This document shows positions 47,309 to 64,000 of a stretch of 64,000 nucleotides of DNA, in pieces; position 1 is the first letter of the stretch, and every line of letters starts with the position of its first letter. The DNA lies in contig CAVZRV010000007.1 of the NCBI GenBank assembly GCA_963777605.1, forward strand, positions 896,001 through 960,000, written 5' to 3'. The stretch comes from an uncultured Acidobacteriota bacterium (GTDB lineage Bacteria; Acidobacteriota; UBA6911; RPQK01; JAPXNP01). The position numbers and the translations under genes were made by a program. The notes below the pieces were generated by a model. That model ran no database searches and was not told the origin of the DNA. It saw only the letters and a program-made list of their open reading frames with translations.

Positions 47309-48202
47309 ATGAGAGTCATCGTGAACGCGACGGCGGGAAAGGGAACCGCCCGGCGCCTCCTTCCCGAGGTCCGGGGTCTCCTCGACCGTGAGTTTCCCGG
47401 GTATGAGTTGGCGACAACCGAAGGTCCCGGTCACGCAGAGGTGCTTGCCCGAGAGAGCGCCGCGCGCGGAGAGTCCCTTGTAATTGCCATGGGAGGGGAC
47501 GGAACCCTATCGGAGGTAGTCAATGGACTCGCGGGTTCAAAAACCGCCCTGGTGATCGTACCCGTTGGCACGGGGAATGATGTAGCCCGCACGTTGAAAA
47601 TCCCGGTCAACCGCCCGGTTGAGGCCCTAAAGGTAATTAGTAACGGCGCTCCCCGTTCCATCGATCTGGGCTGGGATGGTTCTCGTTACTTCGTTTCACT
47701 GCTCGGTGTGGGCTTCCCCGCTGTCGTCGCAGCCGAGGCGAATCGGCAACATCACTTTGGTGGCACCCTCGCATTCAGCTTCTCCGTTTATCGCAGAATT
47801 TCCGAGATGCGGCCTGCCAGGGTAGAAATCGTGATTGACGGAAACAGGGTTGAATTGGAATGTACTTCGATCTTGGTCCAGAATACCCCTTTCACGGGAG
47901 GTGGCCTGCGGGTGGCTCCCCACGCCAGGGTGGATGATGGTCTGTTGGACGTGGTGGTTGTGGACAATATCGGTAAGATGAATCTTCTGTGGAACTTCCC
48001 ACGGTTATACAGGGGAACGCACGTGGCCAATCCGCATTTCCATATGTTTCGTTGTCGCGACCTTGAACTCGCAACAGAACCCCCAATGGCCATGACGCTC
48101 GATGGTGATCCCTATGGTGTTTCCCCGGTGCGCGTGCAAGTCGTTCCTGCTGCCGTGACTGTGCTTGTTCAAAGGGAAAAAGAGGTGAGGCGTGAGAATT
48201 AG
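47309..48202 (+). CDS. Diacylglycerol-kinase-family lipid kinase (YegS/BmrU-like)
   Basis: VNATAG, GGDGTLSEVVNG, PVGTGND, DDGLLDV, LDGD. Confidence 0.92.
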   Translation: MRVIVNATAGKGTARRLLPEVRGLLDREFPGYELATTEGPGHAEVLARESAARGESLVIAMGGDGTLSEVVNGLAGSKTALVIVPVGTGNDVARTLKIPVNRPVEALKVISNGAPRSIDLGWDGSRYFVSLLGVGFPAVVAAEANRQHHFGGTLAFSFSVYRRISEMRPARVEIVIDGNRVELECTSILVQNTPFTGGGLRVAPHARVDDGLLDVVVVDNIGKMNLLWNFPRLYRGTHVANPHFHMFRCRDLELATEPPMAMTLDGDPYGVSPVRVQVVPAAVTVLVQREKEVRREN

Positions 48203-51200
48203 GGAGTACCTCAGTGGGAAGACATTGTTCATCACAGGTGCGACCGGATTTCTAGGCCAGCCCTTCGTCGAAAAGATCCTCTGGACAACCCCGAACGTTG
48301 AGCGCATCTATGTTCTCATCCGCCCGAAACATCATTTTGGGGGCCGGGTTTTGACTGCGCAGGAGAGGCTGGAGAAAGAACTCTACAATTCGAGTGTTTT
48401 CGAGCGTCTCCAGATGCGCTTGCAAGACCGCTTTCAGGATTTCCTGAAGGAAAAACTGATCGCCGTCTCCGGCGACATCGCCCGTCCCAACCTCGGCCTG
48501 AGTGAAAAGGACCAGGCCCGACTCCGATCCCAAGTCGATATTGTCGTCAATAGTGCAGCCGTCGTCTCCTTCGATGCTCCCATTGACCAGTCTCTTGAGC
48601 TCAACGTCTTCGGGGCCAGGCGCGTCGCGGCTTTCGCGGTCAGCTGTGAGAAGGCTGTCCTGATGCACGTCTCAACCGCGTACGTCTGTGGTGCCGCAAC
48701 CGGCTCCGTACCCGAAACCCTCCACCACGCGGCGCGTCCGGATGTCCAACATGAGCCGTTTCCAACCCGGGCTTTCACCGATCCGGAAGCCGATATCCAG
48801 GCGATTCGAGACCTGGTTGAACGCGTTCGACAAGAAGCCGAGGCTCCCGAGCTCCGTCGGAAGTTTGCCTCCGAGTTTCTCCGCACCAAGTCGAAAGGAC
48901 GGCGCCGGGTGCGTCGAGACACTGAAATAGCAAGTCTCCGAAAGCGCTGGCTGGCCAACCGCCTGGCTGAAGAAGGTATGAAGTGGGCCCGACAACGGGG
49001 TTGGAACGACACCTATACCTACACCAAGGCACTCGGCGAGCAGATGGTTTCCCGGCTTCGGGACCAGATTTCGATGGCGATTGTCCGCCCGTCGGTGATC
49101 GAAAGCAGCCTTTCGGAACCAGCGCCCGGCTGGCTTGACGGCCTGCGGATGGCGGATCCTCTGATCGTCGCGATTGGCAAAGGCCGCTTGCGCTCTCTGC
49201 CCCTCGACCCTGACGTAGCCTTAGACCTGGTTCCGGCCGACATGGTTGTCAACACCATGCTGGCAATGCTGCCCAGACTTGAGCAACCTAGTGATGAACT
49301 CCGCATCCTGCAGGTTGCCACGAGTTCAACCAATCCAATCACGCTACGTTCACTCTACGAGCTCATTTTTGAGTACTTTCGCGGCAATCCCATGCTCGAC
49401 AAGACCGGGAACCCGATTGTCCTGAAGCCCCTGCGGTTCCCTAGTCCGACGGCTTTCCGCATCCAGCATCATTTAAAAGCGGTTCCGCTCGGCACGGCGG
49501 AAAAAACCCTGGAACACCTTCCGGCGATGGACGTTACCCAAAAGGCGAAACGCCGAGTCTCGGCCACTCGCGCCGCCTACGAGAAGCTTTACTATTACGG
49601 GGAACTCTACGAACCCTACCTCAACCTGAACTGTGAATTTTCGGTGAAAAACACCCTCAGGCTGTTCGAGGAACTATCCGCCGACGAGCAAAAGGAGTTC
49701 AATTTCGATGTTGGGGCCCTGAACTGGAGACACTACATTCAGAACGTCCACATCCCTGGTGTGAAGAAGCACATCCTGAAGCTGGAGGGATCCGGGGCTT
49801 TTGAGTTGCCCGACGAAGAGCGCAGCGGAGCTATGCCCCGGACTATCCGGGAACTCCTCGAGCAAACCGCCAACCGCCTTCCCGAGAAGGTTGCACTCCA
49901 GGTCAAACGGAAGGATCAGTGGGTCCGATTCAGCTTCCGCGATATCTATCAGCGCGCGTGTGAAGTCGCGGGCCGGCTCCACGCAGCGGGCCTGCGCAAG
50001 GGTGACCGGGTTGTGCTTTTCTCGGAGAACCAGCCGGAGTGGGGAATCTCTTACCTGGGAGCTTCCTTCCTCGGCTTAATCGTTGTCCCCCTTGATTCCC
50101 AGACTTGGCATCGCGAGGTCTGGTCGGTTGCCGAGTTTACCGAAGCAAAGGCTCTCCTTATCTCTCGAAAGTGCCTGGAACGTCTTACCAAGGAAGAGCT
50201 CAAAGAAAACGAGACCGCAAGGAACCCTCGATTTCTCTTTAGTGTTGACAACCTTTGCGCGCCGCTCGGTCTCAAGGAATATCCGAACAGTTCCAACCCC
50301 AAAGTGGAACGGGTGAGCGATTCTTCGGTCCTTCCAGAACTGGACACCAACGATCCCGTTTCAATCATTTTCACAACCGGAACCGCCGTCGACCCCAAGG
50401 GAGCGGTTCACACCCACCGCTCCTTCCTCAACAACCTCCAGGGGGTCAACCACTACCTTTCGGTCGGGGAAAACGATCGCTTGCTCTCGGTCCTGCCTCT
50501 CTACCATGCCTTGGAGTTCTCTTGTGGCTTTCTGATGCCGCTGCATCGCGGGGCCAGTGTCACTTACGTCCACTCCCTGAAGCCCCGCGTTATCCTGGAG
50601 ACCATGCGGGAGACGAAGACGACCTGCATGCTCGGGGTGCCGACCTTGTACGCCCTGATCCGGGAGGACATCGAGCGAAGAATCCTGAGGACCTCCAAGT
50701 CTCCGCTCAAACAGAACGTGATGAGGACCTCGAAGCGACTCAGCGAGTCGGTAGAGGAGCGATTCGGTCACAACATCGGCCGGAGACTCTTTGCGCGAGT
50801 GCATGAGGAGTTTGGAGGACACATCCGCGTGTTCGTGAGTGGGGGTTCAGCCCTTGGCCGGAGCCTTTATCGTGACTTTAGATCGATGGGGCTTCCAATC
50901 TACGAGGGTTACGGTTTGACCGAAACTGCTCCAGTGCTCACAGTCAACCCGCTCCACAGGAGCCGCGAAGGTTCCGCCGGCAGGCCACTGCCGGGAGTCG
51001 AATTGCGACTTTTCCGACCGGATCGGGACGGCATTGGAGAGATTATCGTCCGGACTCCGAGCATCATGGAGAAATACTTCAAAAACCCGGAAGCCACCGA
51101 AGCGGTCTTTCGCGACGGGTGGTTCCACACGGGAGATCTTGGTTGGGTCGATGCGGACGGCTTCGTCTACATAACCGGACGGTGCAAGGACGTGATAGTG

Positions 51201-52527
51201 ACCGGAGCCGGGAAGAACGTCTACCCGACGGACCTCGAAGCGATCTACCGGTCGCTGGATTCGATCGACGACATCTGCGTAATCGGCATTAAGAGCGGCC
51301 TTACAGAGGACGTTCACGCAGTCATTGTTCCGGCCGGCGGAGCGGGTGCTGAAGACGGGGAAGCGCAGACGAGGAAAGAGATTCAACGGGAGATTCAGGA
51401 ACTGGCCAAGGAATTGCCGAGCTATAACCGGCTGCAGCAAATTCACATCCGGCAGGAGGCTCTCCCTTTGACTGAAGAGGGGAAACTGGATCGGGCGGCG
51501 ATCCGGAACTGGGTCACAGCTGAAGTCTCCGGCCTGCCGCGGCCCCAGGTGGCCCGGCCGGGGAAAGAAACGAGCCGCCGGGAAAAGCTTCTCGGGGAAC
51601 TGAGTCGGCTGTCCGGAGTTGACGTGAAGGAGATCGACGACGAGACCAATCTCTACATCGATCTTGGAATGGATTCACTGCTTGCGGTCGAACTGCTCCT
51701 CTTCATCGAAAGGGACCTGGGTATCAGCGTTGCCGATGAGTGGATTCCAATGTTCCAGACGGTGGGCGACGTTCTCGACGAGTTGCGCCGGCAGGGAGTG
51801 AGTACCGGGGCGACCGGGGCCCCGGAGGTCGTTCGTTCGGCCCTTTCCTATGATAAGCGTCCAACCATCGACCGGGCCCTGATGGGCGCGAGTTTCTCCA
51901 CGCTGAAGGCACTGTTTCGAAGTTACTTTCAGTTACAGATCGCGAATCCCCAGATCCTTCCGCTCGATCGCCCTTATATCGTGGCGGCAAACCACTCCAG
52001 CCACCTCGACTCGGTCGCGGTCATTTCGGCGTTGAGTCTGGCCCTCGGCGTAAGGGAGGCGCAAAGGGTTCACATCATTGGAGCACGGGATTACTTCTTC
52101 AATTCCCCACTGAAGAGTTGGCTGTTCAGCACCTGCCTGAATGTCGGTCCCGATCGAGCGAGATGAGGTTGGACTGGCCGGGTTGAGGATGGTTGGGTCG
52201 ATTCTCGGTCGCGGTGAACCGGTCGTGATCTTCCCCGAAGGCACTCGAAGCAGAACCGGCGAACTCCAGGAGTTTAAACCCGGCGTGGGGCTGATCGCGT
52301 GGGAGTACCAGGTTCCGATCGTTCCCGCATTCATCAAGGGAGCCTTTCAGGCCATGCCGGCGGGAAAAAGCCTTCCGAAACCCCACCCGATTGAAGTGCG
52401 CTTTGGTGAACTGGTCCAGATGGGGGATTATCGGGAATACGCGGCCAGCGTCTCGCGCGATGAGGTCTACCGCAAGATTGCCTCGGACCTGCGGTCAAGC
52501 ATAGTCTCCCTGACGCTCGATCAATAG
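48192..52527 (+). CDS. ElbD-like multidomain protein: fatty acyl reductase, acyl-adenylate ligase, ACP and PlsC-type acyltransferase; +1 frameshift near 52147
   Basis: TGATGFLG and YTYTK (FAR); FTTGTAVDPKG, YGLTET, FHTGDLG (adenylation); LGMDSL (ACP); NHSSHLD and, after the shift, FPEGTRS (acyltransferase). Confidence 0.85.
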
Positions 52528-52528
52528 G

Positions 52529-53479
52529 TTATTCCGTTCGAAGAAGTTCGAGCAAACCCTCGCGGGCAATGTTCCCGCCGCTCAACACGCAGGCAGTGCC
52601 GTCGGCAGGGATCTTTCCTTCCAGCACGGCTGCCAGTGTAACTGCGCCGGAAGGCTCCACGAGCAGTTTTTCCTCAAACAGGAGCTGGCGGGTTGCCGCT
52701 GCGATCGCGGTTTCCGAGACCACGACGACGTCTTTCACGAGTCGCTGAATAATCGGAAAAGTGAGACTGCCGGGGCAGGTGACGCGCAGTCCGTCAGCAA
52801 CGGTTCGGGCTTCAGGGATTGAAACCCTTTCGCCCTTTCGATAGGAGAGAAAGGCAGCGGACGACCCTTCCGGCTGGACGCCCCATACCTGAACGTCCGG
52901 ACGCAGCTGCGAGATACTCGAGAGGATCCCGGCAATCAGGCCACCCCCGCTGATCGGAACGACAATGTTCCTTACGGAAGGATATTGCTCGGCGATTTCG
53001 CAGCCGAGGGAGGCATTTCCGAGGATTGCGTCAACGTGGTTGTAGGGATGAATGACCGTCCGGTTTTCCTCGGAGGAAATCCGGTTGACGGTCTCCTCCC
53101 GGGCCTCGAATACGTTCGCGCAGGGAACCACGATCCCACCAAAGGCCCGGGTCCTCTCCTTCTTCAAAGCGCTGGCGGATTCCATCATCACGATTTTGGA
53201 GACGATCCCAAAGCGGGTCGCGGCAAACCCAGCGGCCTGGGCAAAGTTTCCCGAGCTCGACGTGACGATGCCCTGCCTGCGGGCCTCTTCCGTCAGTCGC
53301 GCAACCTGGGCATAAGCGGGCCGAATCTTAAAGGAACCCGTCACCTGGAGGTTCTCAGTTTTGAAAAAGACGGAGGGAACAGAGTGAGACTCCAGCAGCG
53401 GAGTCCGTCGCGCGACTCCGACCAGCAACGCCCGGGTCTGCCGGATCTCCTCGAGTGAGAATTGAAACTCCTTGGGCAT
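52529..53479 (-). CDS. PLP-dependent threonine dehydratase/serine racemase family protein
   Basis: KTENLQVTGSFKIR, SSGNFAQA, PISGGGL, VEPSGA, LSGGN. Confidence 0.9.
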   Translation of the reverse strand: MPKEFQFSLEEIRQTRALLVGVARRTPLLESHSVPSVFFKTENLQVTGSFKIRPAYAQVARLTEEARRQGIVTSSSGNFAQAAGFAATRFGIVSKIVMMESASALKKERTRAFGGIVVPCANVFEAREETVNRISSEENRTVIHPYNHVDAILGNASLGCEIAEQYPSVRNIVVPISGGGLIAGILSSISQLRPDVQVWGVQPEGSSAAFLSYRKGERVSIPEARTVADGLRVTCPGSLTFPIIQRLVKDVVVVSETAIAAATRQLLFEEKLLVEPSGAVTLAAVLEGKIPADGTACVLSGGNIAREGLLELLRTE

Positions 53480-53546
53480 AAACTCATCTAAATGTTAGCT
53501 TGCAAAGAGCCTGTCTGGAAAGGGCTCGGGGAGAAAAGGAGGAACT

Positions 53547-54647
53547 ATGGCGTGGCGGAGGGCATCGGGCGTGATCTTGGCAGCGCTGCTGTTCGCGGGC
53601 TGCGGTTGGTGGTCCGGGAAGACGGACAGCGCCGCCTCAACTGAACAGGAAACGGCGAAAGTCGCGGCGAATGCGACCCCCGCGCAAGAGTTGTCCCCGC
53701 CTGAGTCGGCGAACCGGGAACCAGCACCGCCAGTCGTCGAGGCGCCGGCAGCGGCTGTGACCAGGGCCCCCCGAGCGGAGGCTCCTGAGCGGGCGCGCTC
53801 CCCAGTTCCAGTGCAAAAGGAAAAAGCCGAGCCGATAGCGTCCCCGAACGTCACTGCCGGCAAACCTCAACCCTCGGGGCCTGCAGAGCCGGCGGTGGCA
53901 TCCCGCTCCCAGGAAAGACCGCCTCTGACCAGGACCCCGGCGGCTGCGGAACCGGCGGAAGAATTGGCAACGCCTTCGACCCAAACGTTCGATTCTGCGG
54001 AGGCTTCATTGCCGCCGGCTCCGGCGCGCAGTGGAATCGTTGTTCCTCCGGGACCACCGAGACCGGGCGCGGGTCTTACTCCCTCGAGTTCGCCAACGAT
54101 GGCTCGGGACGTCGCTGCACCAGCCGTATCCGAACCGCAACGACTGGCAGAGGGGACCGTTATCGAGGTGAGACTTGCGGAGAACCTGGGGACGGAGACC
54201 CATCGGGTCGGCGATCACTTTCGGGCCATCCTCGACCGTGACATTGAAACTGAAAGCGGCAGGGTGATCCCAAAAGGCAGCGAAGTCGAGGGCACGATTC
54301 TGGAGTCGATCGAACCGGGTCGAGTCAAGGGACGTGCGAGCCTGACGTTTGCTCTCAGCCGGCTATTGGTCGGAGATGAAGTGATTCCTCTGGAAACCAA
54401 TCCGATTACGATGGAAGCCGAGAGCACTAAAGGGGAGGACCTCAAGAAAGTCGGCATCGGCGCGGCTGTCGGCACAGCCCTCGGGGCGATCTTCGGAGGG
54501 AAGAAAGGAGCCGCCGTCGGCGGGGCCAGTGGCGCCGGAGCCGGTACGGCCGGAGTGCTGCTCTCCCGGGGCAACCCGGTGAAGATCGACAAGGAACGCC
54601 TCTTCAGTTTCCGGCTCGAAAAAGAGGCCGTCGCCGAACCACAGTAG
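53547..54647 (+). CDS. Lipoprotein with long Pro/Ala-rich linker and C-terminal glycine-zipper domain
   Basis: AGGAGG RBS; lipobox LFAGC; GAAVGTALGAIFGGKKGAAVGG. Confidence 0.8.
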   Translation: MAWRRASGVILAALLFAGCGWWSGKTDSAASTEQETAKVAANATPAQELSPPESANREPAPPVVEAPAAAVTRAPRAEAPERARSPVPVQKEKAEPIASPNVTAGKPQPSGPAEPAVASRSQERPPLTRTPAAAEPAEELATPSTQTFDSAEASLPPAPARSGIVVPPGPPRPGAGLTPSSSPTMARDVAAPAVSEPQRLAEGTVIEVRLAENLGTETHRVGDHFRAILDRDIETESGRVIPKGSEVEGTILESIEPGRVKGRASLTFALSRLLVGDEVIPLETNPITMEAESTKGEDLKKVGIGAAVGTALGAIFGGKKGAAVGGASGAGAGTAGVLLSRGNPVKIDKERLFSFRLEKEAVAEPQ

Positions 54648-55210
54648 GTCGAGCGTCCGCGCTTGTCTCCGAAGTCAGAGCGGTCCGCGGCTGGACCATT
54701 CGCAGAGTGAAACTTGCCAAGTCCCAGCCGGAAATCGCGATTCACCCTCATTCGGTACGCGCGTACAGCGAGCGTGTCTTCAGATCTTGATCTACTGCCA
54801 GGCTTGGATCTTGCCTCCATCCGGACGGTTCCGGCCTCCGGCATCACTGCTGGTGACGTGGGAGCATCCGCAGTCGCGCTCGCTTCCCTCGCGTACTGAA
54901 TGCGGGTTTCGTTAGATGAACGCACCAACGGCGCAGGGTCATTTCCAGCCCGGGGCAGCCGCCCCGGGACTTCGAGGCAAAGCGAAATTGCAGCACTGAA
55001 GGTGCGATTCAATCTCACCCCTGTCACGTGGCATACCTACTGGATCCAGCGAACTCATCCAGGTCATCCAAATTGAAGTTTCAGGCTTTGGACCACAAAG
55101 GAGACAGAGGCAGATACTCCCTGGCCTGAGTCCAATGTCGGCAGAGCCGACGAATGGAGCGGGAGTTGCACGGGAGCCACCAATCTCTTAAACTGCACGC
55201 AGTTGACCGC

Positions 55211-55302
<92 letters not shown>

Positions 55303-55318
55303 CTTTCCTCAACCCTAT

Positions 55319-55884
55319 TTAATCCGCTGACGACTCGATGAACTCCTTCAAGTTCCGAACCGTGCCGGCAGGGCTCCAGATTCCCTGGCTGATGTCGAGT
55401 TGGTACATGAAGAGAAGCCGTGGGGTCTTCGTGTTCGTGATCAGGGCCACCGTCTTGCGCTGGACCTGCTGCGGCATCGGCCCCGGTGCCTGACCGGATC
55501 CACTCCCGTCAACGTACGGGATGCGGTTTCCACGGATCGTGTTTGAAAAATCCTCCACGAACGTCTTGGACTGGAAGAAGAGGACGATATCGGCTTCAGC
55601 GAGATTTTCGGATTTGGTCCATCCAAAGGTCTGGTGAATCTCCCCAAGGATGCGGTCGGTTCCTTGTGCATCACCACCGGCGGCAGACAGGTAGAACGTG
55701 CTGACTTTACGGAGCGCATCAATGCGTTCCTGGGCCGGCTGCACGTCGAACAGGTTGTCCCGCATCGTGTCCAGGCTGGTTTTCTCAGCCGGCCGGTCGC
55801 TCCGAAAACCATTCGAATCGCCGCGACCTGAACCAATGCGATCCCCACGATGGCGAGAAGCCTAAAGAATGAGTCACTCTTCAT
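55319..55884 (-). CDS. Hypothetical exported protein with 1-nt deletion near 55798 (error or pseudogene)
   Basis: GGAGGAG RBS and signal peptide (MKSDSFFRLLAIVG) in one frame; body (DRPAEKTSLDTMRDN...) in another; length is 3n-1. Confidence 0.6.
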
Positions 55885-55999
55885 AACCTGTCTCCTCCTC
55901 CAGATACTCTGATGCTTCGCCTGGTCAAGGGTTCACCATTGAATTAGGCCGACACCGTCGGAGATACATGCGATATCTGACGAGATTCTCAGGCGAATC

Positions 56000-56723
56000 A
56001 ACTTATCTCCGACATTTCTGTTGCCCGGCCGGGCAACGCCCGCTAGGAGCCTGACCAAGTTGCGAGAGTTGGATCTCGACCTCACAGGAGTGACCGCAGC
56101 ATTCCTCCAGAGTTCGGAACCGAAGATCTGGAAGTCCTTGCCTCTCCCAGAACAACTGGAGCGGCACCCTCCCCGTCGAGTTGGTCAACCTGGTGAACCG
56201 GAGCAGGTCTGTGCTCGGCCACAATGACTTCACGGGCCTGGTGATCCCGGACGAGTTCGGAAATTTGGCCAGTTTGAAGGCGCTGCAGGCGGGATCGGTG
56301 ACGGTGAGCTCGGATCAACCCATTGCCGGAGTCGTCATCTTCTCGGGCCCGACGGTCGGTGCCGCTGGCGTTGGCAACAGCCTGGAACTGCCGGAAGGAT
56401 TCGTCGCCCCCATGGAGACCAACCAGTCGAGCGGAATCAACACCGGGGTCGCAGTGATGAACCTGGAAGATGCAGACCAGACGCTGGACGCGGACTTGCT
56501 CGACAGCGCCGGCCAGAAGTTGGCGTCGGCCCAGGTATCTCTGGCAGCCCTGGGGCATGCAGCGTTGTTCGTAACCGAGATCCCGTGGAACCAACCGGTA
56601 GAGTTCAACCAGTTCGAAGGGCTCCTGAGGATTCGAAGCGAAGGCAAGACAGCGGCCACCGTAATCCAGACCCGCCCCGGCCAATTCGCCACCATGCCGG
56701 TTGCAGCGAAACCAAAGGATTGA
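56000..56723 (+). pseudogene. Remnant of leucine-rich-repeat protein joined to an intact C-terminal domain
   Basis: Frame-broken LRR units (SIPPEFG, LSQNNWSGTLPVELVNL, HNDFTG..IPDEFGNLASLKAL) running into AGSVTVSSD...NTGVAVMN...FATMPV; no start or RBS. Confidence 0.7.
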
Positions 56724-56772
56724 GATTCTTTACCTGGGGAATCAACGACTACTCATCGACGAGGAGACTCCT

Positions 56773-58687
56773 GTGAAAACGACGCTCCGAAACCTCTTTC
56801 TTGTGGCGATGGTGATTGTGGCCTCGAACATCTCCATGGGCGCCCAGAGTTACACGCTCGGTTACACCCCTGGCCGGACCTATTTCAACGCGGATGCCGG
56901 CCCGATTCGGCCTCCGTTTGAGCTGGTCAAGACGATTCCGCTGACTTCCGGCAACTTTGCCGGCTACCTGGCGGTTGCGGGGGATCGGCTGCTCGTTGAA
57001 AGCATTGAAGAAGATAACGAGGGAAGAAGCCGAGCCGTCTTCACCATGATCAACGAAACGACCGGCGAGACCCTCTGGAGCATCGCCGGCGACAAGTTCC
57101 TCTACGCAGGCGCAGAAGGCTATCCCGCGGCGATCAGTGATGACGTGGTCTTCCTGGCCACGGACCACACCACCGGCGTGCGGGCCGTCTCCGTCTTGGA
57201 CGGGACCGAACTCTGGCGCGACGATTCCGTGGGCCGGCTCAATCTCGTCTCTCCGATTGTCAGCAACAGCCTTGCCCTTTACGGAGGAGGTGATTCCCTG
57301 GTGGCGGCACGCACTCTTACGGGCGATCCCTATTGGCGAATCAATCACGATGGGGTCCGCAGCTTCGAACAAGGCATCGCCGCATCCGGCGGGCAGATTT
57401 ACCTCTTCGACGGCGGGTCGGCCGTTGCACGGAACCTGTTAACGGGAGAAGAAGTCTGGAGCGTCCCCCCAATTCAGGTGGTCGACTACCCGGCCCAGCT
57501 CCTGGTTGGAGAAGGGCGGGTTTTCGTGGCAAGCAGCGCGAATAGCTCGAAACAGAATTTGACGGCTTTGCGCGCCGATTCGGGTCAAGATTGTCTGGCA
57601 GGTCAATTGGGAGGACTGGTCCGAGACCCATGTTGCCTACGCCTACCACAGGGTGTTTGCATTTCAGCGGGGTCGGAGTGGTCTGCGGAACCGGATCGTA
57701 GCGTTGGATCCGGTGACGGGTCAGGAGCTCTGGTCTCACGAAGACGATGGTGCAGGCCTGCCGTATGGTCAGGTCGCAAACAACCTCGTCTTCTATCAAT
57801 GCTGGGATCGAACCCTGGCCCTTGATGCCTTCACCGGGAGGCTGGTCTGGAGCAAGCAGGTTGATGGGCTCACCAATTCCGTGATTGCAGACGGCCGGCT
57901 TTACCTGCTCTTCCCGGAGGAAATCCAGATCTACCAACCGGCGCATGTTCGGCAGTTGCCCCAGTTCGTGGACGGGCTGGGGGCCTCGACGCTGATCTCG
58001 ATCGTCAACCTGTCATCCGCCGCCAACTCGGGAACGCTGGAGCTCTTTGATGACGCCGGTGCCCCCCTTCCGATCGCGGTTGAGGGAGAGTCGGAGCCTG
58101 CCGCGGTGATTCCCTTCTCCCTGGCTCCGTCGGAGTCCCTGCGAATCCGCACGTCGGGCACGTCGGAAACCCTGTCCTCGGGATGGGTGCGGGTCCGCTC
58201 GGCTGAAGCGGTGAGTGCCGCGGCGACCTACCAGGTGATGGTCTCAGGCGGCCTGTATGAAGCGAGCGTCGATGCCGCCGAACCGACCGGTTCTGCGAGC
58301 CTCTCGGTGATTCGGGCGGAGGAGTTCGGGGGGCTGACCAATACCGGCCTGGCTCTGGTCAATGTATCGGACTCAGCGGCGGAAGTTGAGTTGGAATTTC
58401 GGGGGCGTGCGGCTGAGGGGCCAGCAGGGGGTACGGCCAGGAGTTTTTCTGTGGTCACAGACGGGACGTCTGTGCCACAAGCTCTCGGGGTTTTCCATGC
58501 CTCCCTGACGCTCGATCCGGGGCAACACGTGGCCCGGTTCCTGGACGAGCTTTTCGAGGAGAGCGGACAGGCCGAAGCGGAGGGAACGGTCCTGATTCGA
58601 TCCACTCGACCGATCGCCGTGACGGCGCTGCGCACGCACGACGGCCTGCCGGTATCCAGTTATCCCGTCGGATTTCCGGAGCCGTAG
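56773..58687 (+). CDS. Secreted PQQ-type beta-propeller repeat protein with C-terminal domain; +1 frameshift near 57588
   Basis: GAGGAG RBS with GTG, signal peptide; repeated A.D..TG...W blades across both frames; removing one A gives SGQIVW and joins the ORFs. Confidence 0.8.
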
Positions 58688-59028
58688 GGGATCTTCCGGC
58701 CTCCGCCTGGGTGAGGTCATTTCGTGCCGTTGGGGCGGCCGTGGGTTTGATGTTGGGTCGGGGCGACCTTTTCCCGAGTCCGCTCCTCCTAAGTGGCATC
58801 CTTTTCACTTGCTTCCCGCAGTCTCTTGAAACTTTTTCCGTCTTTTTCCGACTATTTCGGGAATTTCCTCGCACTTTTACCGACACATACGTTCTTAATA
58901 GTGGGGTTTGGGGTTTGGCCCCCGCCGGAGGCTTTACCCGGGGGTTTCGTGCGCCCAGCGCTCTTCCACGGCGCAAAAAACCGAGAGAAGAGTTTAGAAG
59001 GTGCATCACAAGGGAGATGACGTGGTGC

Positions 59029-59120
59029 CGGGATTTCGGGATCATGGGATTTCGAGATCTCGTGATCTCGGAAAGGCGGGATGGGACTCAGGGGACGTAT
59101 GGGACCAATGCGACATGGGA
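59029..59120. repeat. Degenerate short tandem repeats (8-mers then about 9-mers)
   Basis: GGGATTTC GGGATCAT GGGATTTC GAGATCTC GTGATCTC; then ATGGGACTC AGGGGACGT ATGGGACCA ATGCGAC ATGGGA. Confidence 0.6.
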
Positions 59121-59147
59121 AACTCCCTGTCTCCTGTCTTCTTCTCC

Positions 59148-59957
59148 TCACCGTTGTTCCTTGACCGCTTTGCCGATCAATCGCCTGGTCAGGCCGGGGG
59201 CGATCCACTGGAGCCAGCGCAGGGCGCCCAGTTTTCGGGGGATGAAGAGCGTTTTTTGGCGCTGATCCAACGCGCGCAGGACCAGCGCGGAGCACTCTTC
59301 CACGGTGACCGACTCGCTGCTGTGTTTCTTGGGAGAGTGTTGGGACCGGCCCGAGCCGCCGAAGGCGTTGGCCCGCAGGCTGGTTCCGCGGATCCAGCCG
59401 GGCATCACGGTCAGGATGTGGATGGTCTCTCCGACCTCGAAGTCGAGGCTCTTGAGAAATCCGTTCAACGCATGCTTGGCTCCCGCGTAGCCGGTGTGGT
59501 TCGGGATCGCCACTTCTCCCTGCAGGGAGGAGATCGCCACGATCGATCCCCGCGCCTTCAGCAATGCGGGAAGCGCAGCGTGAACGCAGTAGACGGCGCC
59601 GAGGTAGTTGACTTCCATCAGCCTGCGAAACATCGAGAGGTCGGTGATTTCGTCGAAGCGGGCCCACATGCTGACACCGGCGCAGAGGATGAGCTGGTCG
59701 ATGCGCTGGAAATGATCCAGGGTCGCGGTCATCGCCGACCGACAGGCGTCATCGTCGGTGATGTCGGTTGGCTGGGTGATCGCGTCGGCGTCGGGGCATT
59801 TCTCGCGGATCAACCGGAGGGTCTCGGTCAGACCTTCCCGATCGCGGTCGATAAGCGAGAGACGACTTCCCCGCCCGGCCAGGTCCAGGGAAAGCTGCCG
59901 GCCCAGGCCCGAGGCCGCTCCGGTCACGACGGCAACGGAAGGGTGTTGGTCTTTCAT
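59148..59957 (-). CDS. SDR family oxidoreductase, coupled to alkyl-DHAP synthase
   Basis: TGAASGLG, VNYLG, YAGAK catalytic motif; ATGA overlap with upstream stop. Confidence 0.9.
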   Translation of the reverse strand: MKDQHPSVAVVTGAASGLGRQLSLDLAGRGSRLSLIDRDREGLTETLRLIREKCPDADAITQPTDITDDDACRSAMTATLDHFQRIDQLILCAGVSMWARFDEITDLSMFRRLMEVNYLGAVYCVHAALPALLKARGSIVAISSLQGEVAIPNHTGYAGAKHALNGFLKSLDFEVGETIHILTVMPGWIRGTSLRANAFGGSGRSQHSPKKHSSESVTVEECSALVLRALDQRQKTLFIPRKLGALRWLQWIAPGLTRRLIGKAVKEQR

Positions 59958-61717
59958 TCCGCGAACACGTTGTTTCGAATGCCGAACACGTTGGTCGGAT
60001 CGCAGCTTTGCTTGACTCCCTTGAGCAGCTCGATCGCCGGTTCCGACATGGTCTGATTTACGAACCGGGCACGCAGCTTGCCGACTCCGTGGTGATGGGA
60101 GATGGAGCCTCCGTGAGCCAGAATCGTTTCCCGCAAAGACTTCTCGATCTCGCCGAACACGACCTCGGGCCGGGCGACGCCCTTGGTATAGAGGCCGTAC
60201 ATGAAGTAGATGCAAACCCCGGTGTGGTAGAGCTGGGTCACGCGGTAGGAGACATAGAACTTTCCGGGCAGCTTGTGGAGCTTGTGCTGCTCGGCGGCGC
60301 GTTCCTCGACGGCATGGCAAACGTCGTGAATCTTTGACCAGGGAACGGAGGTCTCAAAGGTCTCGCCGATGACGTGGAACTGGGAGACGAAATCCCGGAT
60401 GTAGGCGATGGCATAGGTCAACATGTAGCCGCGTCGGCCGGCATCGGAACCGGCTGCAATCCCGTGGTATTTTGCGGCCAGCTTGTTGAGATGCGATTGC
60501 TGGTAATCGACCTCGTCCTGGGTTCCCTCCATGACAATGGTCGCAGCGACCATTTTGTCGGCGTCAAAGCCACGCACCTTGAGAACGTAGAGCTTCTTGA
60601 TCTTCTCCAGCATGGCCGCGAACCCATCGGATCGGCCCTTGAGCGCCATTCCGAACTTGAACTGAACGTTGTCGACCAGGCGGATGCTGGCAGGAATGAA
60701 GTCGGTCTTGGAAAGGGCGTGCAGGAACTCGACGCCCAGCTCGAAATTGGGGAAAACGAGTGAGCCGTAGCGGGTGACGTCCGGGCGTCGGAAAATCTTG
60801 ATGACGGCCCTGGTGATAATTCCGAGCGTGCCTTCGCTGCCGAATGTCAGCAGTTGGGGTTGAATCCCCATGGAAACGCGTGGCAATGCCGCCGAGTGTT
60901 CAACCGTTCCCAGCGGAGTCACCATGGTGACCTTTTCCACCACCTCTTCAATGTTGCCGTAGCGGTTCTTCTTCATGCCGCTGGCATTGGTGGCGATCCA
61001 GCCGCCGAGAGTGGACAGTTCGATGCTGTCCGGCTCGTGCCCGCAGATGAAGCCCTGGCCCCGCAGCTGCTCCTCGAGGTCCATTCCGCGAATCCCGGCC
61101 TGGACACAGGCGCGCATGTTCTCCTTGTCGATCCACTCGATCTGGTTCATGCGCCGCATGTCCACCGACACGATCATCCGCTGCTCGTTTTCCGGAAGGG
61201 TCAGCGACGAGCTCACGCTGGTCCCGCCGCCGTAAGGAACCAGGCAAACGTCGTGGGCATTCGCCAGTTGCACGACCGCTTCCACGTCCGCGTCGTTTTC
61301 CGGATAGAAAACGGCATCGGCACAACGTTCGAGCCGCTCGTAAAGGACCCGGTACACTTCGTCGGTCGTGGTTTGCCCGTGGCTGTGAAGGAGCCGGTCC
61401 GGATCGTCGAAAGAAAGCTGGTCGGCGTTGGTGCGGGTTTCCAGCGCCCGGCAGAAAGCCTCGTTCCGGACCGGAGGGTCGATCGGCTTGTCGGCGAGTT
61501 CCTTCTTGGTGTCTTTGAGATCCAGTGTGACGCCGAGAACGCTTTCCACGTAAGGGAGAAAGTCGTACATCCGGTAGCCGGAGAGGAGGTAGCGCTTGCC
61601 GGTTAACTCGACGCCACCGTCTTCATGAACGACAAACTCGGTGTCGGCAAATCCCCACTTGTGGCCCCACGGTATGTTGTCGAGAGATGTGTTCAAGCCT
61701 TCGCTCTTCTTTTCCAT
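59954..61717 (-). CDS. Alkyl-dihydroxyacetonephosphate synthase (AGPS)-like FAD-linked enzyme
   Basis: LTGKRY, HEPDSIELSTLGGWIATNASGMKKNRYGNIE, PASIRLVDN, GYMLTYAIAYIRD, FETSVPW, RVTQLY..G.CIYF, SHHHGVGKLR, matching AGPS motifs as I recall them. Confidence 0.9.
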   Translation of the reverse strand: MEKKSEGLNTSLDNIPWGHKWGFADTEFVVHEDGGVELTGKRYLLSGYRMYDFLPYVESVLGVTLDLKDTKKELADKPIDPPVRNEAFCRALETRTNADQLSFDDPDRLLHSHGQTTTDEVYRVLYERLERCADAVFYPENDADVEAVVQLANAHDVCLVPYGGGTSVSSSLTLPENEQRMIVSVDMRRMNQIEWIDKENMRACVQAGIRGMDLEEQLRGQGFICGHEPDSIELSTLGGWIATNASGMKKNRYGNIEEVVEKVTMVTPLGTVEHSAALPRVSMGIQPQLLTFGSEGTLGIITRAVIKIFRRPDVTRYGSLVFPNFELGVEFLHALSKTDFIPASIRLVDNVQFKFGMALKGRSDGFAAMLEKIKKLYVLKVRGFDADKMVAATIVMEGTQDEVDYQQSHLNKLAAKYHGIAAGSDAGRRGYMLTYAIAYIRDFVSQFHVIGETFETSVPWSKIHDVCHAVEERAAEQHKLHKLPGKFYVSYRVTQLYHTGVCIYFMYGLYTKGVARPEVVFGEIEKSLRETILAHGGSISHHHGVGKLRARFVNQTMSEPAIELLKGVKQSCDPTNVFGIRNNVFAE

Positions 61718-61845: not shown

Positions 61846-62490
61846 TCAACGCTTCCAACCGTATTCACCGATCAGGGGAACGAAAGTGCAGCGTTCCCGC
61901 CGCTCCTCGACCAAGCCTCCGGCCTCCCGCCGAAAGACGTAGAGGACCTGAGAGAAACCGTCCTCGATCGGGATGACCAGCCGGCCCTGGAGAGCCAATT
62001 GTGAGCCGAGCGGTTGGGGCAAACCCGGGGCCCCGGCAGTCACGATAATGCAGTCAAAAGGCGCCTCCTCCGGCCACCCGAGAGTGCCGTCTCCCACCCG
62101 TACCTCGACCGAGTAGCCGAGGGTGTCCAGTACCGCCTGGGCTTCGGTGGCGAGGGTCGCAAGTCGTTCAATCGAGAAAACCCGGGCACCTATTTCCGCC
62201 AGGATCGCAGCCTGGTAGCCCGAGCCGAGTCCAACCTCGAGTACCTTGTCCCTCTCGTGGACCTGGGCGGCCTCGGTCATCGCGGCCACCATGTAGGGCT
62301 GGCTGATGGTCTGGCCCTGTCCGATGGGAAGCGGAGAATCCCGGTACGCTTCTTCACACAGCTTCGCTTTGACGAACTCGTGGCGGGGAACCCGGAGGAA
62401 TGCTTCCAGGATCCGGGGATCGGAGACGCCACGAGCCCTGAGCTGGCTCTCAACCATCCGAAGTCGAGCTGCTTTGAAATCTAAAGGCAT
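61846..62490 (-). CDS. pcm: Protein-L-isoaspartate O-methyltransferase
   Basis: VPRHEFV, GQTISQPYMVA, LEVGLGSGYQAA, GDGTLGWPEEAPFD, FVPLIG. Confidence 0.95.
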   Translation of the reverse strand: MPLDFKAARLRMVESQLRARGVSDPRILEAFLRVPRHEFVKAKLCEEAYRDSPLPIGQGQTISQPYMVAAMTEAAQVHERDKVLEVGLGSGYQAAILAEIGARVFSIERLATLATEAQAVLDTLGYSVEVRVGDGTLGWPEEAPFDCIIVTAGAPGLPQPLGSQLALQGRLVIPIEDGFSQVLYVFRREAGGLVEERRERCTFVPLIGEYGWKR

Positions 62491-62511
62491 TGGGACCAAA
62501 CCCTGATCCAA

Positions 62512-63315
62512 TCATACATCCTTCTCAAATCCCGGCAGAAGAGGCTGGGCGGAGGCGTCATTCTGGCGTTTCCGGAGAAGCGTGTACAGGCGCCGGTACT
62601 CGGCCGCACTCAGTTCCCGCCGGTGGTCCCGCAGGGCCAGCCTGGCGACTTCGATCCGGGCGGGGTCCGAAGCCTCCTCCAGGCGGGCAAGGAGCAAGCG
62701 ATAGGGTTCGCTGGGGTCGCGAGAGAATTCACGAACCGATGGAAAGGACAGCCGGTGGGCAGGGCAGGTCCCGAGCCGGCCAAGTGCATCGCGGTGAAAC
62801 CGCGTAGGATAGCCCATGTGCTGGGCGAATCCGTAGCCGGGATAGAGGCGATCAAGGTCCACCATCATTCGATCCCGCTCCGTCTTGGCCATGATAGACG
62901 CAGCGGCGATGGACACGGAAAGCTGGTCTCCCTTGACCAGGCTGGTCTGGGGAATCGACAGGTCGGCGAGGCGTCGGGCATCGATGAGAAGGTAGTCCGC
63001 CTCAGGGGAAAGGGCCTCAACGGCGCGTCGCATTGCCAGGAGAGAAGCCTGATAGATGTTCAGCGCGTCGATCTCGCGGACGTTGGCCAGCCCAATTCCG
63101 AACGCCAACGCCGTGTGGGAAATTTCGTTCGCCAGGCGTTCCCGCGTCGAGGGGGATAGCTTCTTGGAGTCGTCGATTCCTTTAGGGACACCTTCGGCGG
63201 GAAGAATCACAGCAGCAGCAACGACCGGCCCGGCAAGGGGGCCGACGCCGGCTTCATCGACGCCGGCGATCCGTTGATGACCGCCAGCCCGGAGCTCGCG
63301 TTCGTGAAGGGTCAT
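62512..63315 (-). CDS. rnhB: Ribonuclease HII
   Basis: GVDEAGVGPLAGPV, DDSKKL, KGD..S.SIAAASIMAK. Confidence 0.93.
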   Translation of the reverse strand: MTLHERELRAGGHQRIAGVDEAGVGPLAGPVVAAAVILPAEGVPKGIDDSKKLSPSTRERLANEISHTALAFGIGLANVREIDALNIYQASLLAMRRAVEALSPEADYLLIDARRLADLSIPQTSLVKGDQLSVSIAAASIMAKTERDRMMVDLDRLYPGYGFAQHMGYPTRFHRDALGRLGTCPAHRLSFPSVREFSRDPSEPYRLLLARLEEASDPARIEVARLALRDHRRELSAAEYRRLYTLLRKRQNDASAQPLLPGFEKDV

Positions 63316-63368
63316 GTCCGGCCGCGAAGGCGCCGATTTTCGGCGATAAGAGGCGGCGGATGTTCGAC

Positions 63369-64000
63369 TCAAGAGGAAAGCAGCTCCTCGTTCATGAACA
63401 GGAGGGTCCCGAAGGCGCGCGGAACGTGAAAGTCCGGATCAGGGGTCAATGTCGGCCGCCAGCAGAAGTAGAGCCTCCCGGGTTCGCTGCCGGCCGCGCG
63501 AAACAGGTTGAGTCGCCAGGTCGAACCGGGCCGGGGCCGGTCTGCCTGCGCCTCTTTCTTGAGCATCGGTTCAAATGGGATCCGCAAGGCGGTCAGCCAC
63601 AACCCCTCGTCCTCCCGAACCAGCGTCGCGGATTTCAGTTGAGATCTCCAGTCCCAATCCACGCTGCGACGTGGTTCCAGGACGTGGAGGTCCAGCCACT
63701 GGTTGAGCGGGCTGACTTCGAACTCGAAATAGCCGTCGGCACCGGCGGGCCGGATGAACGCCTCGACAACGTCGAATTCCCACAGCTGGTCGCACGGTCC
63801 GCCGACTCCGAACGCCGGGTTGACGTTCAACCGGGTGAAGGTGGCCGCGAAATAGAGAAAGAGAGCTTCGTCGTTCCAGAGCGATGCCACCGTCATCACC
63901 GGCGGCCGGCCGTCAATGGCCGGAAGCTCCCCGTTCCAGAGGCGATCAACGGGTAACTCACGGTCGGTTTGAAAAGGTTGTTGGGCCGGGTCGAGCAGGT
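63369..64000 (-). CDS. Carbohydrate-binding family 9-like (DOMON-like) protein, 5' part outside window
   Basis: LWNDEALFLYF, LWEFDVVEAFI, YFEFEVSP, WRLNLFR, PDFHVP; frame open to window edge. Confidence 0.8.
   Translation of the reverse strand, partial: LLDPAQQPFQTDRELPVDRLWNGELPAIDGRPPVMTVASLWNDEALFLYFAATFTRLNVNPAFGVGGPCDQLWEFDVVEAFIRPAGADGYFEFEVSPLNQWLDLHVLEPRRSVDWDWRSQLKSATLVREDEGLWLTALRIPFEPMLKKEAQADRPRPGSTWRLNLFRAAGSEPGRLYFCWRPTLTPDPDFHVPRAFGTLLFMNEELLSS

Follow-up and report, generated by a model that had tools for sequence, protein, structure and literature searches.

The window analysed here, a 64,000-nucleotide stretch of DNA from an uncultured Acidobacteriota bacterium, belongs to a 53-contig assembly that is 96.7% complete with 5.68% contamination. 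The seven functions listed for this region by the initial annotation, namely a fatty acyl reductase (FAR), an acyl-adenylating domain, an ACP, a PlsC-type acyltransferase (AT), a DAGK-family kinase, an AGPS homologue and a short-chain dehydrogenase/reductase (SDR), were all recovered where it had placed them by domain matches in Pfam and NCBIfam. Together with their neighbours they are arranged as follows:

47309..48202, plus strand: YegS/BmrU/DgkB-type soluble lipid kinase of the DAGK family (DAGK_cat 1.4e-32, YegS_C 2e-39)
48192..52166, plus strand: ElbD-like protein, first frame, with FAR (NAD_binding_4 and Sterile), AMP-binding (fatty-acyl-AMP ligase), PP-binding (ACP) and a PlsC-type Acyltransferase domain, N-terminal half only
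52146/52147, plus strand: elbD frameshift site, one extra G, the frame changing after CLNV
52147..52527, plus strand, in the +1 frame 52141-52527: ElbD acyltransferase domain, C-terminal half, with an FPEGTRS motif (Acyltransferase profile positions 67-131, E 8.7e-13)
52529..53479, minus strand: PALP-family PLP-dependent threonine/serine-dehydratase-like protein, convergent with elbD (PALP 2.7e-71)
53547..54647, plus strand: Gly-zipper lipoprotein-like protein (weak Gly-zipper_YMGG match, below cut-off)
59148..59957, minus strand: classical SDR of 269 aa, candidate alkyl/acyl-DHAP reductase (adh_short 2e-41)
59954..61717, minus strand: orthologue of AGPS (alkylglycerone-phosphate or alkyl-DHAP synthase), 587 aa (FAD_binding_4 and FAD-oxidase_C)
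61846-62511, minus strand: PCMT (Pfam), a housekeeping gene upstream of AGPS on the same strand
62512-63372, minus strand: RNase HII (Pfam), likewise housekeeping and upstream of AGPS on the same strand

The ElbD-like protein has the four expected domains in order, as the initial annotation had stated, but a one-base insertion inside the acyltransferase domain had been overlooked, so that in the assembly this domain is split by a +1 frameshift. Its FAR portion matches NAD_binding_4 (3.9e-67) and Sterile (5.1e-15) in Pfam, two parts that are typical of alcohol-forming reductases, and at the level of domains it can be classed as such a reductase. It is also the one match to PF07993 above 50 bits in the genome (230 bits; next best 48.7). 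In the FAR region, identity to orthologues is 54-72%, and 54 of 57 relatives have an open frame of 1444-1514 aa. The acyltransferase domain belongs to family PF01553, and ElbD acyltransferase domains show a modest preference for the ATs of AGPS operons (94-107 bits) over a 271-aa PlsC paralogue (47-57 bits); a 285-aa acyltransferase on contig C7 resembles the ElbD domain (86-92 bits) roughly as closely as the AGPS-operon ATs do. No homologues of elbA, elbB, elbC or elbE flank elbD within the window, in contrast to the Myxococcus elbA-E cluster, whose marks we take to be the HAD-type ElbB, ElbC and the NAD-epimerase-type ElbE; the neighbours are instead a prephenate dehydratase, a small ORF, the lipid kinase and the PALP dehydratase. 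The order of FAR, acyl-AMP ligase, ACP and PlsC-type acyltransferase within a single polypeptide, of about 1450 aa, is shared with Myxococcus xanthus ElbD, whose adenylation and ACP activities have been demonstrated in vitro (PMC9131029). The present gene differs from it in being frameshifted in the assembly and in having the YegS/DAGK-type kinase translationally coupled upstream. This kinase scored 176 bits against TIGR00147 (cut-off 118.65), its 3′ end overlaps the start of elbD by 11 nt, and a homologue stands immediately 5′ of elbD in 16 of the 25 elbD loci examined; DAG kinases adjoining elbD have already been noted (bioRxiv 10.64898/2026.06.23.733905; PMC11868695).

The AGPS protein, for which we chose the ATG at 61717 as start codon by comparison with relatives, aligns with guinea-pig AGPS (4bby) over residues 93-656 with 532 bits (E 1.4e-158), a stretch that takes in the AGPS-specific N-terminal domain. 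Dictyostelium AGPS (2uuu) follows with 295 bits, and the next family, D-lactate dehydrogenase (D-LDH), reaches 76 bits. CIYF and SHHHGVGKLR are conserved in the alignment to the solved AGPS, and across 27 bacterial sequences there is no variation in the HHH loop, in an RLVDN motif or in the Tyr by which the 4bca variant differs; Y504, H541-H543 and R346 (numbering of the L026 sequence) are identical in 27/27. The Tyr position was taken from the one difference between the 4bby and 4bca chains, and we assume that the catalytic roles of this Tyr and of the HHH loop are those given in the AGPS structure papers. Paralogues of about 30% identity are common in the phylum and are separated from the orthologues by a clear score gap (E about 1e-50 against E<=1e-160). 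Judged by its sequence, the protein is a true AGPS orthologue, and it is predicted to carry out the acyl-to-alkyl exchange on acyl-DHAP.

The stop codon of AGPS and the start codon of the SDR gene overlap as ATGA. The SDR carries the TGxxxGxG and YxxxK motifs and scored 249.9 bits against NF004825 (cut-off 215); its sequence matches in the PDB are generic SDRs, 11-beta-HSD1 among them, and those in the ESM Atlas are exclusively unnamed bacterial SDR clusters. Our sample of the order comprised 61 genomes, 39 with and 22 without AGPS, and an orthologue of this SDR was found in 38 of the AGPS-positive and none of the AGPS-negative genomes, a result in favour of the initial annotation's inference that the two act together. 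The two genes are adjacent in 33 of the 38 genomes and are co-present without being adjacent in the other five (G305, G311, G315, G318, G322). Gene overlap and strict co-occurrence together establish that AGPS and the SDR are linked. In the literature that we searched we found no description of the AGPS-SDR pair or of a bacterial cluster of AGPS, SDR and FAR, although an earlier record may exist.

ElbD was detected in 58 of the 61 genomes. It is present in 37 of the 39 that encode AGPS, the two exceptions being 90% and 75% complete, and it also occurs in 21 of the 22 that lack AGPS. In a wider sample of the phylum, true AGPS was absent from 41 of 57 genomes with a FAR match. Since ElbD or FAR so often stands without AGPS, ElbD has a complete function by itself, and the 21 AGPS-negative genomes exclude AGPS as the general answer to how ElbD forms the ether bond. 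The initial annotation had proposed co-occurrence and synteny of ElbD, AGPS and SDR as a check; co-occurrence is strong, and elbD and AGPS-SDR lie within 10 kb of each other in 7 of the 37 genomes that have both (G000, G112, G159, G320, G324, G331, G335), in convergent as well as co-directional layouts. In at least nine genomes (G033, G088, G136, G148, G170, G200, G260, G306, G339) the two are separated by long distances or lie on different long contigs. Because the same genes recur together in relatives, the grouping seen in the window exceeds what chance would produce. In large part, the closeness may reflect one inherited ancestral gene order, since the flanking housekeeping genes, of which the PCMT and RNase HII pair served as our synteny markers, are syntenic too; in family f5 this pair is convergent and directly follows elbD, and AGPS-SDR is located elsewhere in the genome.

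Outside the order, AGPS has FAR, AT or reductase genes as neighbours, in other phyla in tight operons, which favours a joint pathway. At locus L036 a FAR-AT-AGPS-SDR series with overlapping genes was found, L033 and L034 carry HMGR-AT-AGPS-SDR, AGPS is followed by a NAD_binding_4 protein at L038 and L041 and by an AT at L021 and L040, and a FAR adjoins AGPS at L022. A 1210-aa frame at this last locus (genome G268) had been considered as a FAR-AGPS fusion and was discarded, as Pfam finds AGPS domains only in it and the FAR lies in a separate frame of 612 aa.

Taken together, the sequence comparisons place two already-known kinds of bacterial ether-lipid module in one conserved syntenic block of this acidobacterial order. 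The locus adds no new kind of system, and the suggestion of a new route had to be dropped: ElbD alongside an AGPS operon is the situation known from Myxococcus, and Acidobacteria, too, have been reported to carry both genes. In M. xanthus, elbD and MXAN_1676 both contribute to ether lipids, ether lipid drops only slightly in the AGPS mutant, and a FAR-AT gene is part of the AGPS operon itself; according to the published view, the two pathways are independent (PMC9131029). The local AGPS operon likewise combines a bacterial AGPS with a reductase, the contribution to ether lipids having been shown genetically in Myxococcus, but its reductase is a classical adh_short SDR and not an epimerase-family protein, and it has no FAR-acyltransferase gene, so that locally the two functions are found in the neighbouring ElbD only. 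Homologues of elb and agps are also known from subdivision-4 Acidobacteria, sponge-symbiont Acidobacteriota, Poribacteria and Latescibacterota, for Acidobacteria with no conclusive link to ether formation (bioRxiv 10.64898/2026.06.23.733905; PMC11868695). These reports share with our case the phylum and the joint presence of both marker genes in a genome; they give co-presence per genome or MAG, and the linkage within the AGPS-SDR pair or with elbD is not described in their text as far as it was available to us, though it may be recorded elsewhere. For the question of how aerobic bacteria, especially ether-lipid-making Acidobacteria, form the ether bond, the side-by-side modules make a shared pathway testable with a compact gene set consisting of an AGPS orthologous to that of animals, a reductase that tracks AGPS over 61 genomes and an adjacent ElbD with the only strong FAR match. 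Such a set bears on whether bacterial AGPS acts as in animals, on the identity of the bacterial alkyl-DHAP reductase and on whether ElbD feeds AGPS.

The animal peroxisomal pathway consists of FAR1, GNPAT, AGPS and the acyl/alkyl-DHAP reductase PexRAP/DHRS7B. Its AGPS is a close homologue of the protein studied here, the local FAR matches the two Pfam domains that eukaryotic FARs have, and the candidate SDR and PexRAP are presumably both classical SDRs and hence members of the same superfamily. In contrast to the animal system, there are no organelles, and FAR and acyltransferase share one chain with an adenylation domain and an ACP, which is why the acyl donor is probably acyl-ACP and not acyl-CoA. 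In the pathway that we infer from the gene content, orthology, catalytic motifs, co-occurrence and synteny observed here, an inference that covers every substrate, the hand-over between the modules and the role of the kinase, lipid kinase and ElbD would form one module and AGPS and SDR the other. The adenylation domain would load a fatty acid onto ElbD's own ACP, the FAR domain would convert the acyl group to an aldehyde or alcohol, the C-terminal PlsC-type domain would transfer acyl groups, and the kinase might phosphorylate an alkyl- or alkylacyl-glycerol. AGPS would make alkyl-DHAP, and the coupled SDR would reduce its keto group to give 1-O-alkyl-glycerol-3-phosphate, which could then enter ordinary phospholipid synthesis. 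Neither an alcohol-forming nor a DHAP-acylating enzyme is encoded in the AGPS-SDR module, which most likely relies on ElbD for the alcohol and possibly for acyl-DHAP; this dependence would be one-way, with ElbD also working where AGPS is missing. We give this reading, in which AGPS and SDR make and reduce alkyl-DHAP from fatty alcohol and perhaps acyl-DHAP supplied by an ElbD that is itself independent of AGPS, a probability of roughly 55%. The initial annotation had already proposed that ElbD feeds AGPS and that the SDR reduces the product, and this proposal is favoured by ElbD being the only strong FAR and by AGPS occurring almost exclusively with ElbD, but weakened by ElbD being common without AGPS.

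Further ether-lipid candidates lie elsewhere in the genome. CarF/PEDS1 (PF10520) gave no genome match, with a model that matched none of 14 control genomes either; the PEDS1/CarF desaturase is needed for plasmalogens only, and given the missing match the expected products are alkyl (plasmanyl) ethers rather than vinyl ethers. An HMG-CoA-reductase-family (HMGR) gene shares a lipid-looking operon with genes for an SDR, an FAD oxidoreductase and an acyltransferase of 579 aa, and its product may be another alcohol-forming reductase, of the FcrA type (PMC11948995). At C15:75068-78583, a protein of 1126 aa from ATG combines two BcrAD_BadFG domains with DUF2229 and so has the BBD core (PMC13159169); by this domain core it is a candidate Ger-like protein, HGD-D (PF06050) had no match in the genome, and the contig in question could belong to the 5.68% contamination. 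As the genome encodes this protein, independence from a Ger-type route, which had been suggested earlier, is not claimable for the organism. The Ger/PlsAR route of anaerobes leads to the same class of end product, sn-1 alkyl ethers, but the genes at our locus are unrelated to it and would put the ether in place while the lipid is still being made, not reduce a finished ester.

There could also be no such dependence. ElbD and the kinase may make alkyl ethers by chemistry of their own, and AGPS-SDR may be fed by others, for example by the HMGR-family (FcrA-like) reductase for alcohol and by another acyltransferase for acyl-DHAP, the two routes merely sharing a syntenic block. The description of M. 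xanthus genetics as two independent pathways, the 21 AGPS-negative genomes with ElbD, the genomes with widely separated modules, flanks that are syntenic so that proximity is maybe inherited rather than selected, the lipid-looking HMGR operon and the HMGR-AT-AGPS-SDR operons found elsewhere all fit this explanation. It accounts less well for the presence of ElbD in 37 of 39 AGPS-positive genomes, with both misses in incomplete ones, and for linkage being retained in two different gene orders; in other phyla, moreover, AGPS without a nearby ElbD has a FAR, HMGR or AT in its operon, and here there is none. We consider two independent routes rather unlikely. A predicted complex of AGPS with the ElbD acyltransferase domain, from alignments headed by the L026 sequence, scored 0.00 and weighs neither way. 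That AGPS and SDR act on other substrates altogether, as in the oxidation of 2-hydroxyacids by their GlcD and D-LDH relatives, is highly improbable: GlcD and D-LDH have the same Pfam domains, the one NCBIfam match is to GlcD and below its cut-off, and paralogues of about 30% identity abound, but the 532 bits with solved AGPS against 76 with D-LDH, the AGPS-specific N-terminal domain, the invariant HHH loop and Tyr, the score gap to the paralogues and the FAR, AT and reductase genes that neighbour AGPS across phyla all argue against it.

The elbD insertion raises the separate question of whether the pathway is inactive in this organism, with elbD a recent pseudogene whose acyltransferase domain has been destroyed. 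In the assembly, a premature TGA ends the first frame after the half of the domain that carries the HX4D motif, the insertion site is GG and not a long homopolymer, and elbD is split as well in G322, another MAG of the order. Both halves are, however, otherwise free of stops, the C-terminal half shares 52-75% identity with the corresponding segment in relatives and keeps FPEGTRS, and relatives read through the site as ...CLNVVPIERDE.... The frame is intact at this position in 24/24 relatives, of which eight (8/8) are uninterrupted and 16 (16/16) have both halves in one frame as judged from HSP coordinates. A scan for indels by means of paralogues, rough and run without a control genome, gave 69 frameshift-like against 299 intact-like loci, and a second broken gene only 5 kb away (56701-58687) has intact paralogues on contigs C15 and C27; the fragmentation into 53 contigs and the contamination of the assembly also speak against a genuine lesion. 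An assembly error is the probable cause, given that the insertion is absent from the 24 relatives and that frameshifts abound in the assembly; we regard a real pseudogene as rather unlikely.

A more far-reaching version of the preferred reading, in which ElbD supplies AGPS and SDR, would make the three proteins an oxygen-tolerant route to the sn-1 alkyl ethers of acidobacterial membrane lipids, among them the monoether and tetraether precursors that serve as climate proxies. The SDR family would then be the bacterial alkyl-DHAP reductase, and the kinase would mark a second, phosphate-free branch with re-phosphorylated alkylglycerol, by virtue of which ElbD would work in genomes without AGPS. 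This extension is speculative, and we think it quite unlikely to hold as a whole.

The description of the locus as near the origin is plausible, since dnaA lies 9.3 kb beyond the window end, although the window by itself does not show it; the cumulative GC-skew minimum falls at about 48-50 kb. The two operons are spaced by about 6.6 kb that hold the PALP dehydratase, the Gly-zipper lipoprotein and a broken PQQ_2 propeller. For the PALP protein, all NCBIfam dehydratase models remained below their cut-offs; its homologue adjoins the elbD or SDR gene in many relatives, and it appears to be a conserved neighbour with no evident lipid role. Homologues of the Gly-zipper lipoprotein lie between elbD and AGPS at loci L042 and L043 and beside the cluster at L026, L051, L060 and L061.

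Domain searches bore out the parts list of the initial annotation, which had read the locus as an animal-type ether-lipid pathway: every listed function is encoded here, in a lipid kinase-elbD module on the forward strand and an AGPS (alkyl-DHAP synthase)-SDR module on the reverse strand.

47309-48202, + strand: YegS/DgkB-type soluble lipid kinase (DAGK_cat, YegS_C; TIGR00147 above cut-off)
48192-52166, + strand: ElbD, first frame (NAD_binding_4 and Sterile, AMP-binding, PP-binding, Acyltransferase profile positions 3-67)
52141-52527, + strand, +1 frame: remainder of the ElbD acyltransferase (PlsC-type; Acyltransferase profile positions 67-131)
59148-59957, - strand: classical SDR, 269 aa
59954-61717, - strand: AGPS
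upstream of AGPS, - strand: PCMT and RNase HII

In Pfam, alcohol-forming fatty acyl reductases (FAR) are made up of NAD_binding_4 and Sterile. The coding regions of the kinase gene and elbD overlap by 11 nt, and an ATGA is common to the AGPS stop and the SDR start; between the operons lie genes for a PALP dehydratase and a PQQ_2 beta-propeller protein, a Gly-zipper lipoprotein-like gene and small ORFs. Only 1 nt separates the ends of the elbD tail and the convergent PALP gene (window 52527-52529), which leaves no space for separate terminators. The placement near the origin was reasonable, with dnaA 9.3 kb past the window end and the cumulative GC-skew minimum at 48-50 kb. The source genome assembly (G000; 6.73 Mb, 53 contigs) is 96.7% complete with 5.68% contamination, and all best-matching public records were MAGs labelled Acidobacteriota.

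Over chain residues 93-656 of guinea-pig AGPS (4bby), the AGPS protein aligned at E 1.4e-158; against Dictyostelium AGPS the E value was 7.6e-87, and the next family, D-lactate dehydrogenase, came at 1.6e-20. The alignment keeps the HHH loop as well as the Tyr by which 4bby differs from the 4bca variant chain, and both, together with the RLVDN motif, are invariant across 27 bacterial AGPS sequences. In a phylum sample of 301 genomes, a clean gap separated AGPS orthologues (E<=1e-160, at least 47% identity) from paralogues (about 30% identity), and a true orthologue was found in 16 genomes, the source genome included. The SDR contains the glycine-rich and YxxxK motifs and passed NF004825; a PDB sequence search and the ESM Atlas returned no specific function for it. 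The pair very probably makes alkyl-DHAP and reduces it as in animals.

We searched an order sample of 61 genomes, including the source genome, with the AGPS, SDR and ElbD proteins, scoring SDR orthologues at E<=1e-65 and at least 44% identity (next-best matches reached at most 180 bits). AGPS was present in 39 genomes, and the SDR tracked it closely, with an orthologue in 38 of these 39 versus none of the 22 AGPS-negative genomes; the sole exception is G309, a genome of 74% completeness in which a contig end truncates AGPS. The two genes were adjacent in 33 of the 38. Family f94 (G305, G311, G315, G318 and G322) has both genes unlinked, 175 kb apart on one contig in G322. AGPS-SDR is present in families f1 and f5 and missing from family f4. 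Matches to the ElbD FAR region occurred in 58/61 genomes: 37/39 with AGPS, the exceptions being G314 (90% complete) and G336 (75% complete), but also 21/22 without it (20/21 when the AGPS-negative, ElbD-positive G049, flagged unpublished, is set aside). In the phylum sample, FAR matches occurred in 57 genomes, among which fall all 16 with true AGPS. Because the genomes are related to each other, these counts are not independent trials. The resulting pattern is nested: AGPS-SDR was found essentially only alongside a FAR-bearing enzyme, and ElbD is common without AGPS. FAR-containing frames of about 786-822 aa were seen in other acidobacterial families, namely in G014, G016, G048, G075, G158, G179, G189, G251, G270 and G291, where true AGPS was not found.

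Using AGPS as query, we also retrieved 25 public loci, in 19 of which an SDR follows AGPS; of the remaining six, L032 stops at AGPS and L037 extends only 1.2 kb further downstream. In L036 (5100-10223), from a MAG labelled Neomarinimicrobiota, genes for FAR, an acyltransferase (AT), AGPS and SDR lie on one strand, overlapping or closely spaced; they represent a complete animal-type gene set as separate genes. Two further Neomarinimicrobiota-labelled MAGs (L033:1687-6426 and L034:8061-12668) have an HMG-CoA-reductase (HMGR)-family gene, AT, AGPS and SDR spaced 2-3 nt apart, and L035 has AT-AGPS-SDR truncated upstream by a contig end. AGPS is followed by a NAD_binding_4 protein in the Chloroflexota loci L038 and L041, lies between an AraC regulator and an AT in L021 and L040, and has a FAR immediately upstream in G268. 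That bacterial AGPS sits with alcohol-forming reductases, acyltransferases and a ketoreductase fits animal-type chemistry, and the same operon pattern fits ElbD supplying what the AGPS-SDR operon of this order lacks. ElbD acyltransferase domains scored 94-107 bits against the ATs of AGPS operons and 47-57 bits against a 271-aa PlsC paralogue; a 285-aa acyltransferase paralogue on contig C7 was about equally close to them (86-92 bits).

AGPS-SDR most likely depends on ElbD for fatty alcohol, and we put the probability of this hand-over at roughly 0.55. That ElbD has no need of AGPS is clear, and AGPS alone therefore does not explain how ElbD forms ether bonds. A PF07993 search of the source genome returned ElbD as the single strong match (230 bits), with nothing else above 49 bits. 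ElbD may nevertheless have company as an alcohol source. An operon-like row on the reverse strand of C7 (G000:C7:425149-432688; L067:3149-10688) encodes an HMGR-family protein, a FabG-like SDR, a FAD amine-oxidase-family protein, a TetR regulator, a 579-aa acyltransferase with a DAGAT-like part and an ABC1 kinase, and its HMGR-family gene is 36% identical to that of the L033 AGPS operon. Published work shows that enzymes derived from HMGR can function as fatty acyl-CoA reductases and suggests a connection with AGPS (PMC11948995). ElbD may therefore not be the sole alcohol source. Rather than serving mevalonate synthesis, the row may be a cluster for an alcohol-forming reductase of the FcrA type.

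The proposed pathway is partly supported: supply by ElbD to an animal-type AGPS-SDR pair fits these data, but ElbD plus AGPS is not a route new to the field. One preprint notes that earlier work had found ElbD and agps homologues in subdivision-4 Acidobacteria without a conclusive ether-lipid link, that elbD and agps occur together in MAGs of Acidobacteriota, Poribacteria and Latescibacterota, and that some elbD genes are flanked by DAG kinases (bioRxiv 10.64898/2026.06.23.733905). In Myxococcus, an operon comprises MXAN_1676 (AGPS), MXAN_1675 (FAR-AT) and MXAN_1674, deletion of MXAN_1676 has a minor effect, adenylation and ACP activities of ElbD were seen in vitro, and FAR, GNPAT and AGPS chemistry in bacteria was posed as an open question (PMC9131029). 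Eukaryotic FAR-GNPAT and PEDS1 have been derived from Myxococcota (PMC13012113), and elb, agps and ger are treated as alternative routes (PMC13159169; PMC11868695). Our literature search found no description of the AGPS-SDR pair or of its linkage to elbD; supplements lay outside this search, and a prior description is possible. The modest added value lies in a candidate reductase that is strictly inherited together with AGPS and in a compact set of genes suited to reconstitution.

The two modules lie at most 10 kb apart in 7/37 genomes with both (G000, G112, G159, G320, G324, G331 and G335) and in public loci L023, L026, L028, L029, L043 and L047, in either a convergent layout (kinase-elbD facing PALP-SDR-AGPS) or a co-directional one (elbD, Gly-zipper gene, AGPS, SDR; L042 and L043); in G100 both halves stop at contig ends, compatible with the convergent layout. 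In at least nine genomes the modules are distant or on separate long contigs. In family f5 the genes convergent with elbD are PCMT-RNase HII, which flank the locus in the window too, and AGPS-SDR lies elsewhere on the chromosome. Since flanking synteny (nitrilase-family gene, prephenate dehydratase, PCMT, RNase HII) extends across the order, the proximity may be largely inherited from one ancestor. The kinase gene lies directly 5' of elbD in 16/25 loci, AGPS-less genomes among them, and thus goes with ElbD rather than with AGPS.

In the window, elbD is broken. Relatives run ...FSTCLNVVPIERDE... uninterrupted in 8/8 loci; here frame 1 runs from CLNV into GPDRAR and a stop, and the sequence from VPIERDE... 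onward is in the +1 frame, which places one extra G at 52146/52147. Arithmetic on HSP coordinates put both elbD halves in one frame in 16 further relatives. The open frame spans 1444-1514 aa in 54/57 order-sample relatives, the three exceptions being the shorter frames of G313 (973 aa) and G340 (1106 aa) and the split gene of G322; in the source genome it spans 1325 aa. Apart from the insertion, the two halves are intact and conserved, and about 5 kb away the PQQ_2 gene (56701-58687, + strand) is likewise divided into two overlapping ORFs in different frames, both parts being in one frame in its paralogues on C15 and C27. A rough scan comparing 350 of the 2863 ORFs of at least 350 aa with the source genome itself, mobile-element copies included and no control genome used, gave 69 loci with consecutive paralogue parts in different frames versus 299 covered by one alignment. 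The assembly looks indel-rich, and apparent pseudogenes anywhere in it call for careful reading. Taken together, this indirect evidence favours an assembly error over a mutation as the source of the insertion. The elbD of another order MAG is also split, inside the FAR region (G322:C22:512237-513836; open frames of 329 and 1245 aa).

The search for ger and carF yielded a Ger/PlsA-like protein of 1126 aa with the BBD core (two BcrAD_BadFG plus DUF2229) at G000:C15:75068-78583 (L048:7066-10446, - strand); PF10520 (CarF/PEDS1) matched nothing in the source genome, nor in any control genome, and no HGD-D match was found in the source genome. Published text gives Ger homologues as undetected in subdivision-4 species, and the C15 contig could be contamination. 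About 4 kb from the Ger-like protein is a B12-binding radical SAM protein with DUF4070 (L048:14303-15787, + strand). The source genome also encodes a second ElbD-like protein, 905 aa long and lacking the FAR part (AMP-binding, PP-binding, PlsC-type Acyltransferase), at G000:C35:199090-201804 (L049:2091-4805, - strand). In one sub-group of the order, a DUF3943 protein of 640-650 aa, absent from the window, is encoded between the SDR gene and elbD (L031:12879-14825, L028:12655-14583). L028 (CAXXFQ010000026.1) comes from a MAG labelled Thermoguttaceae (Planctomycetota), and its order of PALP, AGPS, SDR, DUF3943 gene, elbD and kinase equals that of the acidobacterial L031 and L047 at similar identities, which suggests mis-binning or recent transfer.
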